Source: Oceanotoga teriensis
Lineage (GTDB): Bacteria; Thermotogota; Thermotogae; Petrotogales; Petrotogaceae
Assembly: GCF_003148465.1 (NCBI RefSeq)
Contig: NZ_QGGI01000003.1
Span: forward strand, 91,940-155,939
Length of the DNA stretch: 64,000 bases
Reading direction: 5' to 3'
Both the position numbers and the translations under genes were made by a program. The notes under the pieces are model-generated. The model was given only the letters and a program-made list of their open reading frames with translations. It ran no database searches and was not told where the DNA came from. This document shows, piece by piece, positions 3,533-64,000 of this stretch (position 1 is its first letter; each line of letters opens with the position of its first letter).

Positions 3533-4330
3533 GTGATTAAAATTAAAAATAAATATAAATATGCTCTTATTCAATACCCAAAAAAACAGTCAATATCTTA
3601 TAAAATTTTAAATGAATATTTTAAAATTATGAATTTCGATTGTGAATATTTTGATCTAAGCCTATCAAAAGATATATTTGAAAGGTATATAGCTAAGATA
3701 TTAAATAAATCAGAAGGTTTAAATATAACAGTTCCTTATAAAGAAAAAATAATAGATTATATAGATCCTGATCAAGATGTGAAAAATATAAAAGCTTGTA
3801 ATTTAGTATATAAAAATAAAGGTTATAACACAGATTGGATAGGTTTTTATGAAACAATAAAAGATTTTGACTTTAAAGATAAAAATATTTTGATTTTAGG
3901 TGCTGGAGGAGCTGCAAAAGCTATAATTTATGCTTTATATAAAAAAGGAATAAAAAATATAGATTTAATAAATAGGACTTATTCAAACTCTTGCATATTA
4001 AAAGAAGATATGAAACAATTTATAGATATAAACACATATAAAAAAGAAAAAATAAATGAAATAATTTTAAAAAATAATTTTTTAATAAACTGTACATCTG
4101 TTGGAATGTATGATCAAAGATTTGAATTTAATTATAATCTTTTAAGTAAATATAGTTTTATATATGACATAGTATATAAAGATACAGAACTTATAAAGTA
4201 TGCAAATAATAAAAAAATAAATAATAAAAATGGTTTTGACATGTGGAAAAATCAAGCAATAGAAAACTTAAAAATATGGAAAATATATGATAATAAATTT
4301 GAAGGAGTGATCAAATGTTTGAAAACATAA
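3533..4330 (+). CDS. aroE: shikimate 5-dehydrogenase
   Basis: ILGAGGAAKA NADP-binding motif; operon context. Confidence 0.8.
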   Translation: MIKIKNKYKYALIQYPKKQSISYKILNEYFKIMNFDCEYFDLSLSKDIFERYIAKILNKSEGLNITVPYKEKIIDYIDPDQDVKNIKACNLVYKNKGYNTDWIGFYETIKDFDFKDKNILILGAGGAAKAIIYALYKKGIKNIDLINRTYSNSCILKEDMKQFIDINTYKKEKINEIILKNNFLINCTSVGMYDQRFEFNYNLLSKYSFIYDIVYKDTELIKYANNKKINNKNGFDMWKNQAIENLKIWKIYDNKFEGVIKCLKT

Positions 4331-5001
4331 AAATGGTACTGTTTGATTTAGATCATACTTTGTGGGATTTTGATAAAAATCATGAAATCGCCTTAAAAAA
4401 TACATATGATAAATATATAAAGAAAGATATAAACTTCGATGAATTACATTTATATTATAATAAAATTAATCATAAACTTTGGGAAAAATATAGAAAAGAG
4501 CAAATAACTCAAGTTGAACTTAGAACTCAAAGATTTAAAATTGTTTTTGAACATTTTGATATAAAACTTGAAGATAAAATTAAAGAAATAGATGCTTTTT
4601 ATCTCAATTCATTATCACAACAAAAAGAAACGATAAATGGAAGCTTTGAGATAATAGATTATTTAAATAATAATTATGAAATAGGAATTTTGACGAATGG
4701 GTTCGAATCGACTCAACATAAAAAAATGAAAAGTTCAGGACTTGATAAACACTTTAATTTTATTATAACTTCTGATAAAGCAAATGCTTTAAAACCAAAC
4801 AAAAAAATATTTGAATATACTGCTTCAAAAGCAGGACATGATATAAAAGATATAGTATATATTGGAGACGATTTTGAAAATGATATACTCGGGGCTTTAA
4901 ATGCTAATATGAAAGCTATATGGTTTGATCTTTATAAAGAAGGTAAAAAAGATAATATAATAAGTGTTCAAAATTTAATAGAAATAAAAAATATACTTTA
5001 A
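4315..5001 (+). CDS. HAD-superfamily hydrolase (YjjG-like)
   Basis: DLDHTLWDF motif I and GDDFENDI motif IV. Confidence 0.6.
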   Translation: MFENIKMVLFDLDHTLWDFDKNHEIALKNTYDKYIKKDINFDELHLYYNKINHKLWEKYRKEQITQVELRTQRFKIVFEHFDIKLEDKIKEIDAFYLNSLSQQKETINGSFEIIDYLNNNYEIGILTNGFESTQHKKMKSSGLDKHFNFIITSDKANALKPNKKIFEYTASKAGHDIKDIVYIGDDFENDILGALNANMKAIWFDLYKEGKKDNIISVQNLIEIKNIL

Positions 5002-5071
5002 TACAGCTTTTGATTAAGCTGTATTTTTTTAAATAAATTTATTGTATAATAAATTTATGGTAGGTGATAAT

Positions 5072-6166
5072 ATGTTTAATATTGAAATAGCTGGAGATTC
5101 TCATGGAAAGTATATGATGGGTATTATAAAAGGAATACCAGCTGGTATCAAATTAGATTTAAATTATATAAAAAAAGATTTAAAACTCAGAAAAAATACT
5201 TATGGTAGAGGAAAAAGAATGAACCTTGAGGATGATAATATTTTAATCAATTCAGGAATTTATAATGATTTAACAACGGGAGCACCAATAAGTTTAATTA
5301 TAGAAAACAAAGGAAAAAACACTGAAAATAAAGAACGTTTTATACCAAGGCCTGGTCATGGTGATTATACGGGATATAAAAAATATGGAATTAAAGATTT
5401 AAATATTTATACTGAAAGAAACTCTGCAAGATGGACAGTTGTATTAACAGCAATAGGAAGTATATGTAGACAGATACTTGAACTTTTTGATATAAAAATA
5501 TCTGGATATACAAAGTCGATAGGTTATTTAGAAGATAAAAAAGAATATAGTTTTGAAGAAATAGAAGATTATTCAAAGAATAATCTTTATATATTAGATG
5601 AAGAATTTTATGAAAAAGCTATAAAATATATAGATGAGATAAAAGAAAAAAAAGATTCAATTGGTGGAAAAGTAAAAATAATATCAAAAAATGTAATTCC
5701 TGGACTTGGAAGTTATTCAGACTACTTCAATAAAATAGATTCTAAAATAGGAAAATATTTCATGTCGATTCCTTCAGTAAAAGGTGTTTTGATTGGAAAA
5801 GACAAATTTAAAGAACTTGGAAGCGATTATAATGATGAATTTATTTTTAAAAATCAAAAAATATCAAGAAAAAGTAATAATGTTGGTGGTATAGAAGCTG
5901 GATTAACAAATGGAGAAGAAATAGAAGTTGAACTATCTTTAAAACCTATTCCTACAATACTTAAAAATATGAATTCTGTAGATTTAAAAAGTTTAAAAAA
6001 TGAAAAAACTTCTTATATAAGATCTGATAATGTTGTTGTATCATCTATGGTTCCTATAGGAATATCAACTATGAGTATTATAATATTAGAAGAAATATTC
6101 AATAATTTTGGAGATGATAATATAGAATTTATTAAAAATAGATATTTTGAAAAGAAGGGATTTTAA
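5072..6166 (+). CDS. aroC: chorismate synthase
   Basis: N-terminal FNIEIAGDSHGK matches the AroC MRxxTxGESHG pattern; GGTAGGTGA RBS before the ATG at 5072. Confidence 0.85.
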   Translation: MFNIEIAGDSHGKYMMGIIKGIPAGIKLDLNYIKKDLKLRKNTYGRGKRMNLEDDNILINSGIYNDLTTGAPISLIIENKGKNTENKERFIPRPGHGDYTGYKKYGIKDLNIYTERNSARWTVVLTAIGSICRQILELFDIKISGYTKSIGYLEDKKEYSFEEIEDYSKNNLYILDEEFYEKAIKYIDEIKEKKDSIGGKVKIISKNVIPGLGSYSDYFNKIDSKIGKYFMSIPSVKGVLIGKDKFKELGSDYNDEFIFKNQKISRKSNNVGGIEAGLTNGEEIEVELSLKPIPTILKNMNSVDLKSLKNEKTSYIRSDNVVVSSMVPIGISTMSIIILEEIFNNFGDDNIEFIKNRYFEKKGF

Positions 6167-7650
6167 TGGCTTTTTTTATAGTAGGCATGATGGGTTCAGG
6201 AAAAACTACTATTGGTAAAAAAATATCTAAAATATTGAATATGAAGTTTATAGATATGGACTCTTATATAGAAGCACTTGAATCTAAGAGCATAAGAGAT
6301 ATTTTTAATGAAAAAGGAGAAATATATTTTAGAACACTTGAAACAAAAACCTTAAATCTTTTGAAAGATAAAGAAATAATAGTTTCATGTGGTGGTGGAG
6401 TCATTTTAAAAAAAGAAAATAGAGAAATATTGAAAAAATATAAAACAGTTTTTTTAGATACAGATCTCCAACTGATAAAAAATAGAATGAATTCTAAAGA
6501 AGAAATAGAAAAAAGACCTCTTTTAAAAAAAGAAAGTATAGAAAATATTTTTGAAAAAAGAAAAAACTATTATAATAAATTTAAAACTTTCAAATATGAT
6601 ATTAAAACTGAAGATAATTATATAATTTCAAGAATTATAAGGTATTTTTTAGATGAAAATCAAATTATTTCAGAAGATAACTCTATACAAAATTATAAAA
6701 TAATTCTCAATTATAAAGTCGAAGAACTTGAAGATACTTTTATAATGAGCGAAAAAGTTAATCAAATTTATGGCAAAAAAATATCAAAAAAAATAATATT
6801 AGAAAATGGTGAAAAATCTAAAAGTATAGAAAATTTTCAAAAGATAATGAATTATTTAGTGGAAAAATCTAAAAATAGATCACATACCCTTGTGGGATTT
6901 GGTGGAGGTACTATAACAGACATAACAGGTTATTCTGCATCTGTTTATAAAAGAGGCATGAAATTGAAATTAATTCCAACTACTTTATTGTCTCAAGTTG
7001 ATGCAGCAATAGGAGGTAAGAATGGTATAGATTATAAGGGTTATAAAAATATAATAGGTACATTCAAATATCCAGAAATTACAATCATTGATCCTCTTTT
7101 TATTTTAACTCTCGATGAATCAGATTATATACAAGGTTTAGTAGAAGCTTTTAAAATAAATCTTTTATCTGGAGAAGGATTTGAAATATTTGAAAAAGAA
7201 TATGAAAATATTTTAAATAGAAATATAAATTCTGTTTTAAAGATTATAAATAATAGTATAAAACAAAAAATAAATATTGTAAAAAAGGATTTTGAAGATA
7301 AAGGAATAAGGAATATTTTAAACTATGGACATACTCTTGGTCATGCTTTTGAGTCCATAACCGGGAAACCTCATGGTTTATCTGTTGCATGGGGTATTAG
7401 AAAAGAAAATGAAATTCTTAAAAAAAAGGGTATAATGGATGATCATACCTTTTATTATATAGATAGAATTCTAATAAAAATTGTTGGAGAAGAACTATTA
7501 AATATAAATATAGAAAGCAAAAATCTAAAAGATTTTATAATAAATGATAAAAAAATAAATAGAAATAAAATAAATTTAATTTCTATAATTAAACCTGGAA
7601 GTTATGAGCTATTAAATATAGATTTAAAAGATTTTTTGGAGATGATATGA
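6166..7650 (+). CDS. aroKB: bifunctional shikimate kinase / 3-dehydroquinate synthase
   Basis: N-terminal P-loop GMMGSGKTT (AroK) fused to a DHQ synthase core (GGGxxxD, HTLGHA); 494 aa. Confidence 0.8.
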   Translation: MAFFIVGMMGSGKTTIGKKISKILNMKFIDMDSYIEALESKSIRDIFNEKGEIYFRTLETKTLNLLKDKEIIVSCGGGVILKKENREILKKYKTVFLDTDLQLIKNRMNSKEEIEKRPLLKKESIENIFEKRKNYYNKFKTFKYDIKTEDNYIISRIIRYFLDENQIISEDNSIQNYKIILNYKVEELEDTFIMSEKVNQIYGKKISKKIILENGEKSKSIENFQKIMNYLVEKSKNRSHTLVGFGGGTITDITGYSASVYKRGMKLKLIPTTLLSQVDAAIGGKNGIDYKGYKNIIGTFKYPEITIIDPLFILTLDESDYIQGLVEAFKINLLSGEGFEIFEKEYENILNRNINSVLKIINNSIKQKINIVKKDFEDKGIRNILNYGHTLGHAFESITGKPHGLSVAWGIRKENEILKKKGIMDDHTFYYIDRILIKIVGEELLNINIESKNLKDFIINDKKINRNKINLISIIKPGSYELLNIDLKDFLEMI

Positions 7651-8081
7651 TGATTTTAATTATAAATGGACCAAATTTAAACATGCTTGGAAAGAGAAAT
7701 AAAAATATATATGGTATAAATACGTATGAAGAATTATTTGAAAGTTTAAAAATATGGGGATTAAAAAATGAAATCAAATTAGAAATATTTCAAACAAATC
7801 ATGAAGGAAAAATAATAGATAGAATTCAGAAAGATGATTTTCAAGCTCTTATAATAAATGCAGGAGCTTATTCTCATTATTCTTATGCCATATCTGATGC
7901 ATTAGAAATAATAAAGAAAATCAAAATAGAAGTACATATTTCGAATATATATGCCAGAGAAGAATTTAGACATAATTCTGTTATATCAAAAAATTGTAAT
8001 GGAGTTATATCTGGAATGGGTTTTGATGGCTATTTTATGGCTCTTGACCATATAAAAAAAGTTTTGAAAGGAGATTTTTAA
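7647..8081 (+). CDS. aroQ: type II 3-dehydroquinate dehydratase
   Basis: LIINGPNLNMLGKR N-terminus; 144 aa. Confidence 0.85.
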   Translation: MMILIINGPNLNMLGKRNKNIYGINTYEELFESLKIWGLKNEIKLEIFQTNHEGKIIDRIQKDDFQALIINAGAYSHYSYAISDALEIIKKIKIEVHISNIYAREEFRHNSVISKNCNGVISGMGFDGYFMALDHIKKVLKGDF

Positions 8082-9301
8082 TGAAAAAAATAGAACTTTT
8101 ATCACCAGCTGGAAATTATGAAAAACTTGAAATGGTTTATAATTACGGAGCAGATGCTGCATACATAGGAGGTAAGTTATTTAATTTGAGAGCTTTTGCT
8201 GATAATTTCAATGATGATGAACTTGAAAAAGCTGTAGATCTTGCACATAAATTAAATAAAAAAATATATATAACCTTAAATGTAATACCTCATAATGAAG
8301 ATCTCAAAATTATGCCAGATTACATAAAATATTTAGATTCTTTGAATATAGATGGAGTAATAGTTGCAGATATGGGAGTTTTTCAAATAGTAAAAGAGAA
8401 TTCTGATATTCCAATAAATATTAGTACACAGGCAAGTAATACAAATTGGGCAAGTGTCAAAATGTGGAAAGAACTTGGAGCAAAAAGAGTTATATTAGCC
8501 CGTGAAGTTTCAATAGATGAAATAAAACAAATAAAAGATAAAGTACCAGATATAGAATTAGAAGCTTTTGTCCATGGTGCAATGTGTATGTCAATATCAG
8601 GAAGATGCTTATTAAGCAATTATTTAACAGGAAGAGATGCTAATAGAGGTGCTTGTGCACAGCCATGTAGATGGAAATATTATTTAATGGAAGAAACAAG
8701 ACCTGGAGAATACATGCCTATAACTGAAGATGAAAATGGAACATATATAATGAATTCGAAAGATCTATGCACAATTGAGTTCTTAGATAAAATGATAGAA
8801 TCAGGACTTGACAGTTTAAAAATAGAAGGAAGAATGAAAGGTATATATTATGCAGCCACAACAACAAAAATTTATAGGCAAGCTATAGATAAATATTACT
8901 CAGGAAATTGGAATTTTGAACAAAAATGGTTAGATGATTTAATGACTATAAGTCATAGAAATTATACATCAGGTTTTTATTTTAAAAAACCTGGAACAAA
9001 AGATCATAACTATGATTCATCCAGTTATAAACATACACATAAATTAGTTGGTAAAGTGATAAAAGATCTTGGAAATGATCATTACTTAATAGAAATAAGA
9101 AATAAATTATCAGTGGGAGATCAAGTGGATATAATAAAACCATTAGGAGATCCTATACCTATTAAATTTCCTAAAATGCAAGATAATAAAAATGGTGAAA
9201 ATATAGATACAGCTAATCCAAATACCATTGCAAAAATAAAATCAGATATTAAATTATATGAAAAAGATATAATCAGAAAAAAAATAAAAAAGGTTCAATG
9301 A
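8081..9301 (+). CDS. peptidase U32 family protein
   Basis: U32 N-terminal LLSPAGN...GADAAYIGG; conserved Cys cluster. Confidence 0.7.
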   Translation: MKKIELLSPAGNYEKLEMVYNYGADAAYIGGKLFNLRAFADNFNDDELEKAVDLAHKLNKKIYITLNVIPHNEDLKIMPDYIKYLDSLNIDGVIVADMGVFQIVKENSDIPINISTQASNTNWASVKMWKELGAKRVILAREVSIDEIKQIKDKVPDIELEAFVHGAMCMSISGRCLLSNYLTGRDANRGACAQPCRWKYYLMEETRPGEYMPITEDENGTYIMNSKDLCTIEFLDKMIESGLDSLKIEGRMKGIYYAATTTKIYRQAIDKYYSGNWNFEQKWLDDLMTISHRNYTSGFYFKKPGTKDHNYDSSSYKHTHKLVGKVIKDLGNDHYLIEIRNKLSVGDQVDIIKPLGDPIPIKFPKMQDNKNGENIDTANPNTIAKIKSDIKLYEKDIIRKKIKKVQ

Positions 9302-9859: not shown

Positions 9860-10030
9860 CCTCCTTTTCTCAGCTATTAGGCAGATTACTCTCACCAAAG
9901 CTAAAGAAAAGGATATCTCTACTTTGGTGACAGCGGACGCGATGTCGAACCGCAGCCATTTAAGGGCATTTCGTCACAGGGCAACGTCCCATCCCTGAGC
10001 ACTAAAACGCATGACATCTACTCTGCCACA
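9860..10030 (-). ncRNA. THF (tetrahydrofolate) riboswitch; aptamer about 9926-10030 plus an RBS-sequestering expression platform
   Basis: GC-rich island on the minus strand that matches the E. siraeum THF aptamer almost block for block (AGUAGAUG...GCGUUUUAGUG...GGGAUGGG...ACGAA...GCGG...CAUCGCGUCCGCU); downstream UCCUUUUCU can pair with GAGAAAAGGAGG at the folT RBS. Confidence 0.8.
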
Positions 10031-61002: not shown

Positions 61003-61114
61003 AATTCTTTTTGGGACTACACGTGGCTGGGTCCTGCGCAACGAAAACTAGTGAAACTGGTCAGGCCCGGAAGGGAGCAGCCATAAGCTTTGTCTTTTGT
61101 GTGCCGCAGGGAAG
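61003..61114 (+). ncRNA. ffs: signal recognition particle RNA (small bacterial SRP RNA / 4.5S)
   Basis: GC-rich island; conserved domain IV sequence GUCAGGCCCGGAAGGGAGCAGCC; terminal helix GUGGCUG/CAGCCAC; ends in a U-run. Confidence 0.75.
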
Positions 61115-61158
61115 CTCAGCCACCTTTTTTTATATATTTTATTATGAGGGGGAATAAA

Positions 61159-62591: not shown

Positions 62592-63344
62592 ATGTTTTTT
62601 GAATGTAAAAATATAGAATTTGATTATAATGAAAATAAAATATTGAAAAATATCTCCCTAGAATTTAAAAAGGGAGAATTTGTTGGTTTAGTTGGAGATA
62701 ATGGTTCTGGAAAATCAACATTAATGAAAATTTTAAGCGGTATATATGAACCTAAAAATGGGAAAATAATATATGAAAATGAAGAATTGAATATAAAAAA
62801 TAGAACAAAAATTGGTTATGTTTTTCAAAATCCAGAAAATCAAATAGTTGGAGTTACTGTTGATGAGGATATAGCTTTTGGACTTGAAAATACAGGTGTT
62901 CCAAGAGAAGAAATGATAAAAAAAATAAAATGGGCACTCGATGTAGTTGGATTAAATGAAAAAGAAAAAGCTGATCCAAACACTTTATCTGGGGGTCAAA
63001 AACAAAGACTCGCAATTGCTTCAATAGTTGCAATGGATCCTTCCATAATATTTATGGATGAACCTACAACTATGTTAGATCCAAAGGGAAGACTTGAAGT
63101 TTATAAAGTAATAAAAAAACTTGTGAATATGGGAAAAACTATAATTATTGCATCGCATCATGCACCAGATTTAAATGAAGTTGATAGAATTATAGGACTT
63201 AAAAATGGTAAAGTTATTTATGATGGAAATAGAGATAAATTTTATATGAATACAAAAATGGCTATAGAAATACCTTTTGATATAAAATTAAAAAAATTTT
63301 TAAATAAATCTTATGATGAGTTGGTGGAAGAAATATGTCAATAA
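62592..63344 (+). CDS. ecfA1: energy-coupling factor transporter ATPase EcfA1
   Basis: single ABC cassette (GDNGSGKST, LSGGQKQR); 250 aa. Confidence 0.8.
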   Translation: MFFECKNIEFDYNENKILKNISLEFKKGEFVGLVGDNGSGKSTLMKILSGIYEPKNGKIIYENEELNIKNRTKIGYVFQNPENQIVGVTVDEDIAFGLENTGVPREEMIKKIKWALDVVGLNEKEKADPNTLSGGQKQRLAIASIVAMDPSIIFMDEPTTMLDPKGRLEVYKVIKKLVNMGKTIIIASHHAPDLNEVDRIIGLKNGKVIYDGNRDKFYMNTKMAIEIPFDIKLKKFLNKSYDELVEEICQ

Positions 63345-64000
63345 AAGTAAAAAATCTTACATATACATATTCTAAAAATACACCATTTGAAAAGATAGCT
63401 TTAAACAATATAAATTTAGAAATAAAATCTGGAGAATTATGGCTATTTGTTGGTCATACGGGGTCTGGTAAAAGTACATTAATAAATACGTTTAATGGCC
63501 TTTTAATTCCTCAACAAGGTGAAGTATATATAGATGAAGAGTCTACAAAATCTAAAGAAATAAAAATAAAGGATATAAGAAGAAAAGTAGGTATAATATT
63601 TCAATATCCAGAAACTCAGTTTTTTTTACCTACCATAAAAGAAGAAATATTATATGCACCCAAAAATTTTAATGTAAACATAGACAAAAAAGAAATATCA
63701 TTTTATATGCAACTTTTATCTTTACCTTATGAATATCTTGAAAGATCTCCTTTTAACTTATCTGGTGGAGAAATGAGAAAAGTAGCTATAATTTCAGTAT
63801 TATCTTATAAACCAGAGTATATAATTTTTGATGAACCAACTGTTGGTTTAGATTATTCTACCAGAGAATCTGTTTTTAATACAATAAAACAACTCAATAA
63901 AATGGGAAAGACAATAATATTATCTACACATTGGATAAGTGAATTTCTTGAATTAAAACCGAATGTATTAATGTTAAAAGATTCAAAAGAAGCTTTTATA
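63335..64000 (+). CDS. ecfA2: energy-coupling factor transporter ATPase EcfA2 (3'-truncated by the window end)
   Basis: MSIKVKNLTYTY...GHTGSGKST...LSGGEMRK; overlaps the ecfA1 stop. Confidence 0.7.
   Translation, partial: MSIKVKNLTYTYSKNTPFEKIALNNINLEIKSGELWLFVGHTGSGKSTLINTFNGLLIPQQGEVYIDEESTKSKEIKIKDIRRKVGIIFQYPETQFFLPTIKEEILYAPKNFNVNIDKKEISFYMQLLSLPYEYLERSPFNLSGGEMRKVAIISVLSYKPEYIIFDEPTVGLDYSTRESVFNTIKQLNKMGKTIILSTHWISEFLELKPNVLMLKDSKEAFI

Follow-up and report, generated by a model that had tools for sequence, protein, structure and literature searches.

The closest described relative of the locus reported here is the THF-I riboswitch class (RF01831), represented by the folT leaders of Eubacterium siraeum and Streptococcus mutans. 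Its known architecture consists of helix P1 and an inverted P2-P3-P4 three-way junction held by a pseudoknot between L3 and J2/1, and pterins are contacted at the pseudoknot by U7, U35 and U42 and at the junction by U25 and C53 (PMC9881143). Published accounts place the class in Gram-positive bacteria or mostly in Firmicutes (PMC3766115, PMC6800512, PMC9881143); the survey that took in 11 Thermotogales genomes found it mostly limited to Firmicutes (PMC3766115), and our literature search retrieved no paper tying a THF riboswitch to Thermotogae or Thermotogota. The second class, THF-II (the folE motif of Rhizobiales), resembles the switch proposed below in sensing reduced folates and in controlling translation by hiding the ribosome-binding site (RBS); however, its aptamer is small, has two helices and contains the RBS within P1, and it is located upstream of folE in Gram-negative bacteria (PMC6800512, PMC9881143). 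With regard to the mode of control, the nearest parallel is found in translational OFF switches of the E. coli thiM TPP type, in which the P1 3'/switching strand, the anti-Shine-Dalgarno (anti-SD) strand and the Shine-Dalgarno (SD) sequence are mutually exclusive (PMC5049679). On the protein side, the FolT proteins of group II ECF transporters have been solved from Enterococcus faecalis (4z7f) and, as ECF-FolT, from Lactobacillus delbrueckii (5d3m).

We analyzed a 64,000-nucleotide stretch of the Oceanotoga teriensis genome (contig NZ_QGGI01000003.1, positions 91,940 to 155,939), hereafter the window. Its minus strand carries a leader which shares with THF-I the full-length model match, the P1, three-way junction and pseudoknot architecture, the invariant U/U/U and U/C contact positions and the place upstream of folT, and which differs from it in the host phylum, Thermotogota, and in an expression platform with a 6-nt insertion. 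No THF-II match was present in the Rfam scan of the window. The folT gene belongs to the same family as the two solved proteins and, as in group II ECF transporters, encodes an S component on its own; candidate ecfA/ecfA' genes lie in another part of the window. The mutual exclusion known from the thiM-type scheme recurs in the leader, to which the window adds UCUGCC, a second copy of the P1 3' strand located downstream and able to capture the P1 5' strand. As modelled, four strands of the platform would exchange partners reciprocally; a strand-swap platform of this kind (alt-P1 plus anti-sequestor) was not found for THF-I in the accessible literature, the original class papers excepted. Our main reading, to which we assign a probability of roughly 0.85, is that the locus is a functional THF-I translational OFF switch on folT, in a cassette shared with Geotoga and probably derived from a single Halanaerobiales-like acquisition.

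The aptamer and the elements assigned to it are as follows:

10027-9929, minus strand: THF-I riboswitch aptamer, full-length match to RF01831
10027-10023 with 9933-9929, minus strand: helix P1, from the Rfam-derived pair list
10018-10007 with 9953-9941, minus strand: helix P2, from the same list
10002-9993 with 9981-9973, minus strand: helix P3, from the same list
9968-9965 with 9957-9954, minus strand: helix P4, from the same list
9989-9985 (L3, GGACG) with 9939-9935 (J2/1, CGUCC), minus strand: pseudoknot, from the same list
10068-10040, minus strand: candidate sigma-70-type promoter, with -35 ATGAAA at 10068-10063 and extended -10 TG-n-TAGAAT at 10048-10040

A first-pass annotation had proposed a THF aptamer on the minus strand of this region, and all the motifs quoted in it are present within 10027-9929. 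When RF01831 was searched against the 64-kb window, this segment scored 61.0 bits (gathering score 36; E 2.5e-11) over model positions 1-99 of 99. By class membership, it is a genuine and intact THF-I riboswitch. G+C makes up 56% of the block and 27% of the window as a whole, and no open reading frame of at least 60 amino acids overlaps 9860-10030 on either strand. Among relatives, RF01831 scores range from 48 to 83 bits, which places the window in the lower part, and three positions in its P2 and P3 are non-canonical. The pairing of THF-I with folT is canonical, and the host phylum is its only unusual point; any Rfam-based annotation pipeline would detect the riboswitch.

The helices were evaluated on an alignment (A4) of 90 distinct related aptamers, with slid registers and 500 shuffles as the null. 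P1 to P4 together with the L3-J2/1 pseudoknot were 93.9% paired, compared with 38-49% in slid registers, and cells changed on both sides numbered 472 versus 143 +/- 16 after shuffling, a value reached in 0 of the 500 shuffles. Compensatory changes occurred at 8 of the 12 pairs of P2 and at 7 of the 9 pairs of P3. The pseudoknot was 100% paired in the 90 sequences, with both-side changes at two of its five pairs, and P4 was only 71% paired because MAFFT aligns this helix of variable length poorly. Five residues, U10020, U9991, U9984, U10001 and C9973, which we take to be the equivalents of the pterin contacts from their motif positions and from the E. siraeum numbering, are invariant in 90/90 aptamers. 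Between Oceanotoga and Geotoga, identity amounts to 82-84% in the aptamer, 65% in folT nucleotides and 45% at third codon positions, a contrast that we count as support for selection on the aptamer.

Upstream, the promoter candidate matches 9 of 12 consensus positions plus the TG, although the total number of sites in the scan was no higher than chance, so that it is not evidence by itself. In the Geotoga loci, as in two loci labelled Thermotogaceae (L015 and L098), the motif TATGnTAnAAT also lies 9-10 nt 5' of the aptamer. Transcription from the candidate promoter is predicted to start a few nucleotides 5' of the aptamer.

Downstream, the following genes and signals are relevant to the proposed target:

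9853-9323, minus strand: folT (ATG at 9853-9851), folate-family ECF S component of 176 amino acids, TIGR04518
9321-9286, minus strand: intrinsic terminator 3' of folT, with a 16-pair stem and a U-run, from the terminator scan
62592-63344 and 63335 to the window end (incomplete), plus strand: tandem ecfA/ecfA'-like ABC ATPase genes, TIGR04520/TIGR04521 and PF00005

The ATG of folT lies on the same strand, 75 nt beyond the 3' end of the aptamer and without an intervening open reading frame or terminator; the first-pass annotation was right about the upstream position, its spacing of about 70 nt being slightly short. Its assignment of the product to FolT-type ECF S components was also borne out, with 113.6 bits against NCBIfam TIGR04518 (cut-off 60), further matches to PF07155 and PF12822, and PDB 4z7f (FolT; E 1.3e-11) as the best solved relative, followed by 5d3m (E 1.1e-4); the protein is 100% identical to an Oceanotoga protein. 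The gene product is a FolT-family ECF S component by sequence, for which folate binding and transport are predicted. The terminator at 9321-9286 could double for the convergent U32 gene, and in our main reading the folT mRNA is monocistronic. With respect to an energizing module, the ATPase encoded at 62592-63344 has TIGR04520 (ECF_ATPase_1) as its best family, with 268.9 bits and below the equivalog cut-off of 315, and the one starting at 63335, cut by the window end, has TIGR04521 (ECF_ATPase_2), with 257.9 bits and below the cut-off of 330. The tandem ATPases at 62592-64000 are likely ecfA/ecfA' and plausible candidates for shared energizing subunits of the solitary FolT. No ecfT gene was seen in the 64-kb window; it would sit past the window end.

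Three elements between the aptamer and folT form the predicted sequestor:

9867-9860, minus strand: Shine-Dalgarno sequence AAAGGAGG, with GGAGG at 9864-9860
9876-9862, minus strand: SD-side arm of the sequestor, AGCUGAGAAAAGGA, from complementarity and from folding with the aptamer enforced
9913-9899, minus strand: anti-SD strand UCCUUUUCUUUAGCU, from the sequestor hairpin obtained in folding

The stretch UCCUUUUCU (9913-9905) is complementary at all of its 9 nt to AGAAAAGGA (9870-9862), which lies directly 5' of GGAGG (9864-9860) and overlaps it. The helix extends to UCCUUUUCUU.AGCU paired with AGCUGAGAAAAGGA, that is, 9913-9899 with 9876-9862, and with the aptamer enforced the unpaired probability of 9870-9862 was about 0 in folding. 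In the window, the duplex between the mid-leader and the SD reached -16.9 kcal/mol versus -7.7 for shuffles (z -4.5), and for the middle segment paired with the SD, the median across 89 leaders was -11.5 versus -7.5 kcal/mol for shuffled sequences. Columns of the anti-SD:SD helix were 78% paired, but slides by +1 or +2 gave 76-78%; the register is not discriminated by columns because the helix is polypyrimidine:polypurine. The window platform is atypical in sequence owing to a 6-nt insertion, AGCUUU (9902-9897; columns 43-48 of alignment A3), which the Oceanotoga leader alone has among 91 platforms. This insertion partly repeats CUUU(A/G)G and spreads the nucleotides of the two competing helices wider than in other leaders.

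The helix competing with the sequestor, and an additional element downstream of it, were assigned as follows:

9934-9916, minus strand: 5' arm of the anti-sequestor, consisting of the P1 3' strand GCUGUC and the linker ACCAAAGUAGAGA, from the minimum free energy (MFE) hairpin, duplex energy and covariation
9907-9888, minus strand: 3' arm of the anti-sequestor, UCUUUAGCUUUGGUGAGAGU, which overlaps the anti-SD strand, from the MFE hairpin and duplex energy
9885-9880, minus strand: UCUGCC, a mimic of the P1 3' strand (alt-P1), from the MFE of the anti-sequestor state and covariation

In the window, the anti-sequestor duplex has -23.8 kcal/mol (z -7.0) and shares 11 nt with the anti-SD:SD helix. 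Across 89 leaders, its median was -17.7 versus -7.5 kcal/mol for shuffled sequences, with z < -2 in 97% of them; P1 3' nucleotides were included in 89/89, and both helices drew on the same nucleotides in 99%. Related leaders have homologous linkers and the same three segments, ACCAAAGAG followed by CCUUCUCUUUGGUG and AAAGAGAAGGAGG, and a second linker flavour, ACAUC...GAUGUGGCAG, occurs in Tissierellia and Atribacterota. The anti-sequestor pairing is kept across both flavours: on alignment A3, it was 73% paired versus 49-67% in slid registers, with 41 cells changed on both sides, a number equalled in 0 of 500 shuffles.

As for alt-P1, the P1 5' strand GGCAGA (10027-10022) pairs with UCUGCC (9885-9880) in the MFE of the anti-sequestor state. 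Among 78 leaders, the two strands covary as GGCAG/CUGCC, GAUAG/CUAUC and GACAG/CUGUC, although the change from C-G to U-A may represent a single event in Halanaerobium. The pairing was 88.5% complete versus 31-57% in slid registers, with 0 of 1000 shuffles as high, and in GAUAG leaders the downstream element complements the P1 5' strand better than the true P1 3' strand does.

The two arrangements were compared in 80 leaders with a two-state model, in which either P1 or the anti-sequestor was enforced. For a transcript ending just past the middle segment, the anti-sequestor was favoured in 80/80 leaders, by a mean of -5.0 kcal/mol and by -8.1 kcal/mol in the window; a bias of about this size is comparable to the free energy of binding a ligand. 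In the full-length leader, the two folds were close in energy (median +3.0 kcal/mol; 46 of 80 leaders within +/-5; window -2.0 to -2.5). On average, SD accessibility rose from 0.13 with P1 enforced to 0.50 with the anti-sequestor enforced (80 leaders; p = 2e-14), a gain that is partly circular in that the enforced anti-sequestor takes away the anti-SD by construction. It exceeded 0.2 in 63 of the 80 leaders, a loss of that size being seen in none, and in the window accessibility rose from 0.20 to 0.58-0.79. Unconstrained equilibrium folding placed the sequestor in the MFE structure whether P1 was allowed or forbidden; the hard ban on P1 pairs merely left those bases single, which makes that run uninformative. 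When 7 nt of the P1 3' strand were added to the isolated platform, the SD was not opened (0.27 vs 0.22, equal to scrambled controls); this assay, with an ill-chosen 4-nt SD window and the P1 5' strand omitted, was replaced by the two-state model. Since equilibrium folds keep the sequestor, an ON state needs either kinetic trapping or alt-P1.

From the comparative and folding data, we infer that the RNA binds its ligand, in which direction it regulates and that control is kinetic; most likely, it is an OFF switch of translation that is bistable, probably set by kinetics, and operates by reciprocal strand exchange. Upon binding of a reduced folate, the pseudoknotted three-way-junction aptamer would lock P1 (10027-10023 with 9933-9929); the pyrimidine-rich anti-SD (9913-9899) would then be free to pair with 9876-9862, burying the SD and turning FolT off. 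In the ligand-free state, the P1 3' strand and the adjacent ACCAAAG... (9934-9916) would pair with 9907-9888 and so take the lower half of the anti-SD, and the released P1 5' strand GGCAGA would be captured by its mimic UCUGCC (9885-9880). The SD would thereby be exposed and FolT translated, to dock on a shared EcfAA'T module for folate import. The model predicts that these bacteria salvage folates and set their uptake by the cofactor level, and the conserved anti-sequestor and alt-P1 offer a mutationally testable account of how THF-I couples to translation. A wider claim can be put forward only tentatively, as a possibility that we do not favour: that this four-strand exchange platform, undescribed for THF-I, covaries in more than 75 folT leaders (labelled Halanaerobiales, Tissierellia, Atribacterota and Thermotogota), and that the complete aptamer-platform-gene cassette crossed phyla into the ancestor of Geotoga and Oceanotoga and stayed selected.

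Three other accounts of the leader were weighed against this OFF switch. A simple two-element device, in which the ligand favours anti-SD:SD pairing and the extra complementarities are incidental, would agree with the presence of the sequestor in the MFE under all equilibrium conditions and with the promiscuous pairing of poly-U/poly-A-rich segments. We regard it as improbable, since the anti-sequestor is stronger than z -2 in nearly all leaders and always includes the P1 3' strand, its pairing is kept across two flavours with changes on both sides, the downstream UCUGCC element covaries with the P1 5' strand and an ON state could not arise if nothing competed for the anti-SD. The proposal of translational control by SD sequestration made in the first-pass annotation therefore stands as regards the pairing of UCCUUUUCU with the SD, but not in its two-element form, which missed the anti-sequestor and alt-P1. 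Transcription attenuation at an intrinsic or Rho-dependent terminator, instead of a block of translation initiation, would draw on Tissierellia-type relatives, in which a U-run (GGAGGCUUUUUU) follows the sequestor hairpin and the homologous hairpin may terminate, and Rho-dependent effects would be compatible with the sequence. In the window, however, the hairpin is followed by GUGAAACAUGG and is not a terminator because it has no U-tract, the terminator scan returned no terminator-like site between the aptamer and the ATG (9929-9853), and the 3' arm of the hairpin is the SD itself; attenuation is accordingly given little credence. The last account, a decaying relic aptamer above a constitutive folT, could appeal to the low score of the window within the range of its relatives, to the three non-canonical positions in P2 and P3 and to the lineage-specific platform insertion. 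It is hardly credible in view of the intact pseudoknot and five contact positions, of an aptamer far better conserved than folT between genera and with compensatory changes, and of the eight public Oceanotoga contigs with FolT, which preserve the gene order of the window and, across the entire locus, match it at 99.3-99.98% identity.

The distribution of the aptamer was followed in loci with FolT relatives, 80 from species-representative genomes and 80 from metagenomes. A THF match at the Rfam gathering level lay directly 5' of folT in 68/80 genome loci, and a nhmmer profile built from the genome hits detected THF upstream of folT in 64/80 metagenome loci, several of the misses being loci cut off upstream. 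In Geotoga petraea (GCA_004768445.1) and Geotoga-like metagenome contigs, THF-folT adjoins the same U32-aroQ-aroKB genes as in the window, with THF scores of 61-67 bits, and the FolT proteins of Oceanotoga and Geotoga are about 55% identical. The U32 protein of one of these Geotoga loci (L089) shares 97% identity with its counterpart in Geotoga petraea, 83% with O. teriensis, 73% with Tepiditoga, 66% with Marinitoga and about 63% with Petrotoga, which confirms the host lineage (Thermotogota, Petrotogaceae). At this U32 locus, THF-folT was absent from Tepiditoga, Marinitoga and Petrotoga; Tepiditoga has an unrelated S component without aptamer there, and in Marinitoga and Petrotoga both S component and aptamer are missing. 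Outside Oceanotoga, the nearest FolTs have only 56-62% identity, the named ones being from Halanaerobiales, Thermoanaerobacterales and similar groups, and among 71 homologs there was no named Thermotogota FolT other than that of Oceanotoga. The platform flavour of the window (ACCAAAGAG...CUCUUUGGUG) is that of Halanaerobiales. In a neighbour-joining (NJ) tree, the window FolT and that of a low-GC 'Thermotogaceae' metagenome-assembled genome (L015) fell within a Halanaerobiales-type clade with weak bootstrap, 210/500 for the clade including the window and 119/500 for the window with L015.

The host is indeed outside Firmicutes, as the first-pass annotation had presumed. Its suggestion of horizontal transfer of the riboswitch-folT module is in part sustained, a Firmicutes origin being plausible with weak tree support, but the analogy to an island is not: a recent island was rejected, as the GC3 of folT (0.141, at a GC of 0.298) equals that of its neighbours (0.10-0.15) and the placement is syntenic in Oceanotoga and Geotoga. 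Because of this GC3, any transfer would be old and not recent. On the parsimonious reading of the sequence data, the ancestor shared by Geotoga and Oceanotoga acquired the module once, with a Halanaerobiales-like Firmicute as the probable donor, and both genera then inherited it vertically. Alternatively, the module could be ancestral in Thermotogota, or have moved the opposite way, and have been lost in most lineages with no transfer from Firmicutes. The lack of a compositional anomaly, the syntenic position in two genera, a third low-GC lineage labelled Thermotogaceae that also carries the module (L015, L096 and L098) and the weak bootstrap for nesting inside Halanaerobiales would all suit such a history. 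We nevertheless consider it unlikely in the face of the solitary named Thermotogota FolT among the 71 homologs, the absence of the module from the U32 locus in three other genera, the Halanaerobiales-type platform flavour and a class that is widespread in Firmicutes and that the survey with 11 Thermotogales genomes reported as mostly limited to that group (PMC3766115). The flanking genes of L015, L096 and L098 had nothing in common with the window except FolT. Under the single-acquisition reading, the locus would be a datable case of a whole regulatory cassette persisting after a probable cross-phylum transfer. The THF-I class, held to be Gram-positive or mostly Firmicutes, extends to cultured Thermotogota (Oceanotoga teriensis and Geotoga petraea) and to loci labelled Atribacterota.

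Several further observations were made among the relatives. THF-folT is present in seven loci labelled Atribacterota (L070, L073, L083, L084 and L086-L088) and in one 'Saccharibacteria' bin (L075); most of these aptamers reach 118-121 nt through an insertion of some 20 nt, and the corresponding FolTs group in one clade (bootstrap 500/500). A marine sediment contig of 69% G+C (L164, 2327-2426) has a THF aptamer together with a FolT relative (nhmmer E 1.3e-13). Tissierellia-type leaders with the U-run after the sequestor hairpin (L066, L067, L076-L080 and similar) may both terminate and sequester the SD. Two FolT relatives of Thermovenabulum (L057 and L065) have no THF aptamer and lie about 1.5 kb downstream of purine and ZMP/ZTP riboswitches (L057, 547-900; L065, 625-976), and matches to the 'pan' motif were found near folT in two Halanaerobiales loci (L010, 3098-3230; L040, 38-123).

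The U32-adjacent ECF S component of Tepiditoga was considered as a FolT orthologue and rejected, with 29.5% identity over 105 amino acids and no aptamer. This gene (L175, 7230-7988; Tepiditoga spiralis AP018712) encodes an S component of 252 amino acids and of another family right after U32, in the place that folT occupies in Oceanotoga, and has a 72%-identical amidohydrolase nearby; the U32-adjacent site seems to recruit S-component genes repeatedly. In the window, the U32 'peptidase' gene (8081-9301, plus strand) has TrhP, a prephenate-dependent tRNA U34 hydroxylase, as its best match, with 406 bits and below the cut-off of 534. It directly follows the shikimate-pathway genes aroC, an aroK-aroB fusion and aroQ (block 4315-9301, plus strand), as it does in Geotoga, and from this gene order a functional link between chorismate/prephenate supply and tRNA modification is possible at the U32 block. 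Elsewhere in the window, the Rfam scan also identified a tRNA at 56547-56476 on the minus strand (58.5 bits) and a bacterial small SRP RNA at 61025-61124 on the plus strand (72.9 bits).
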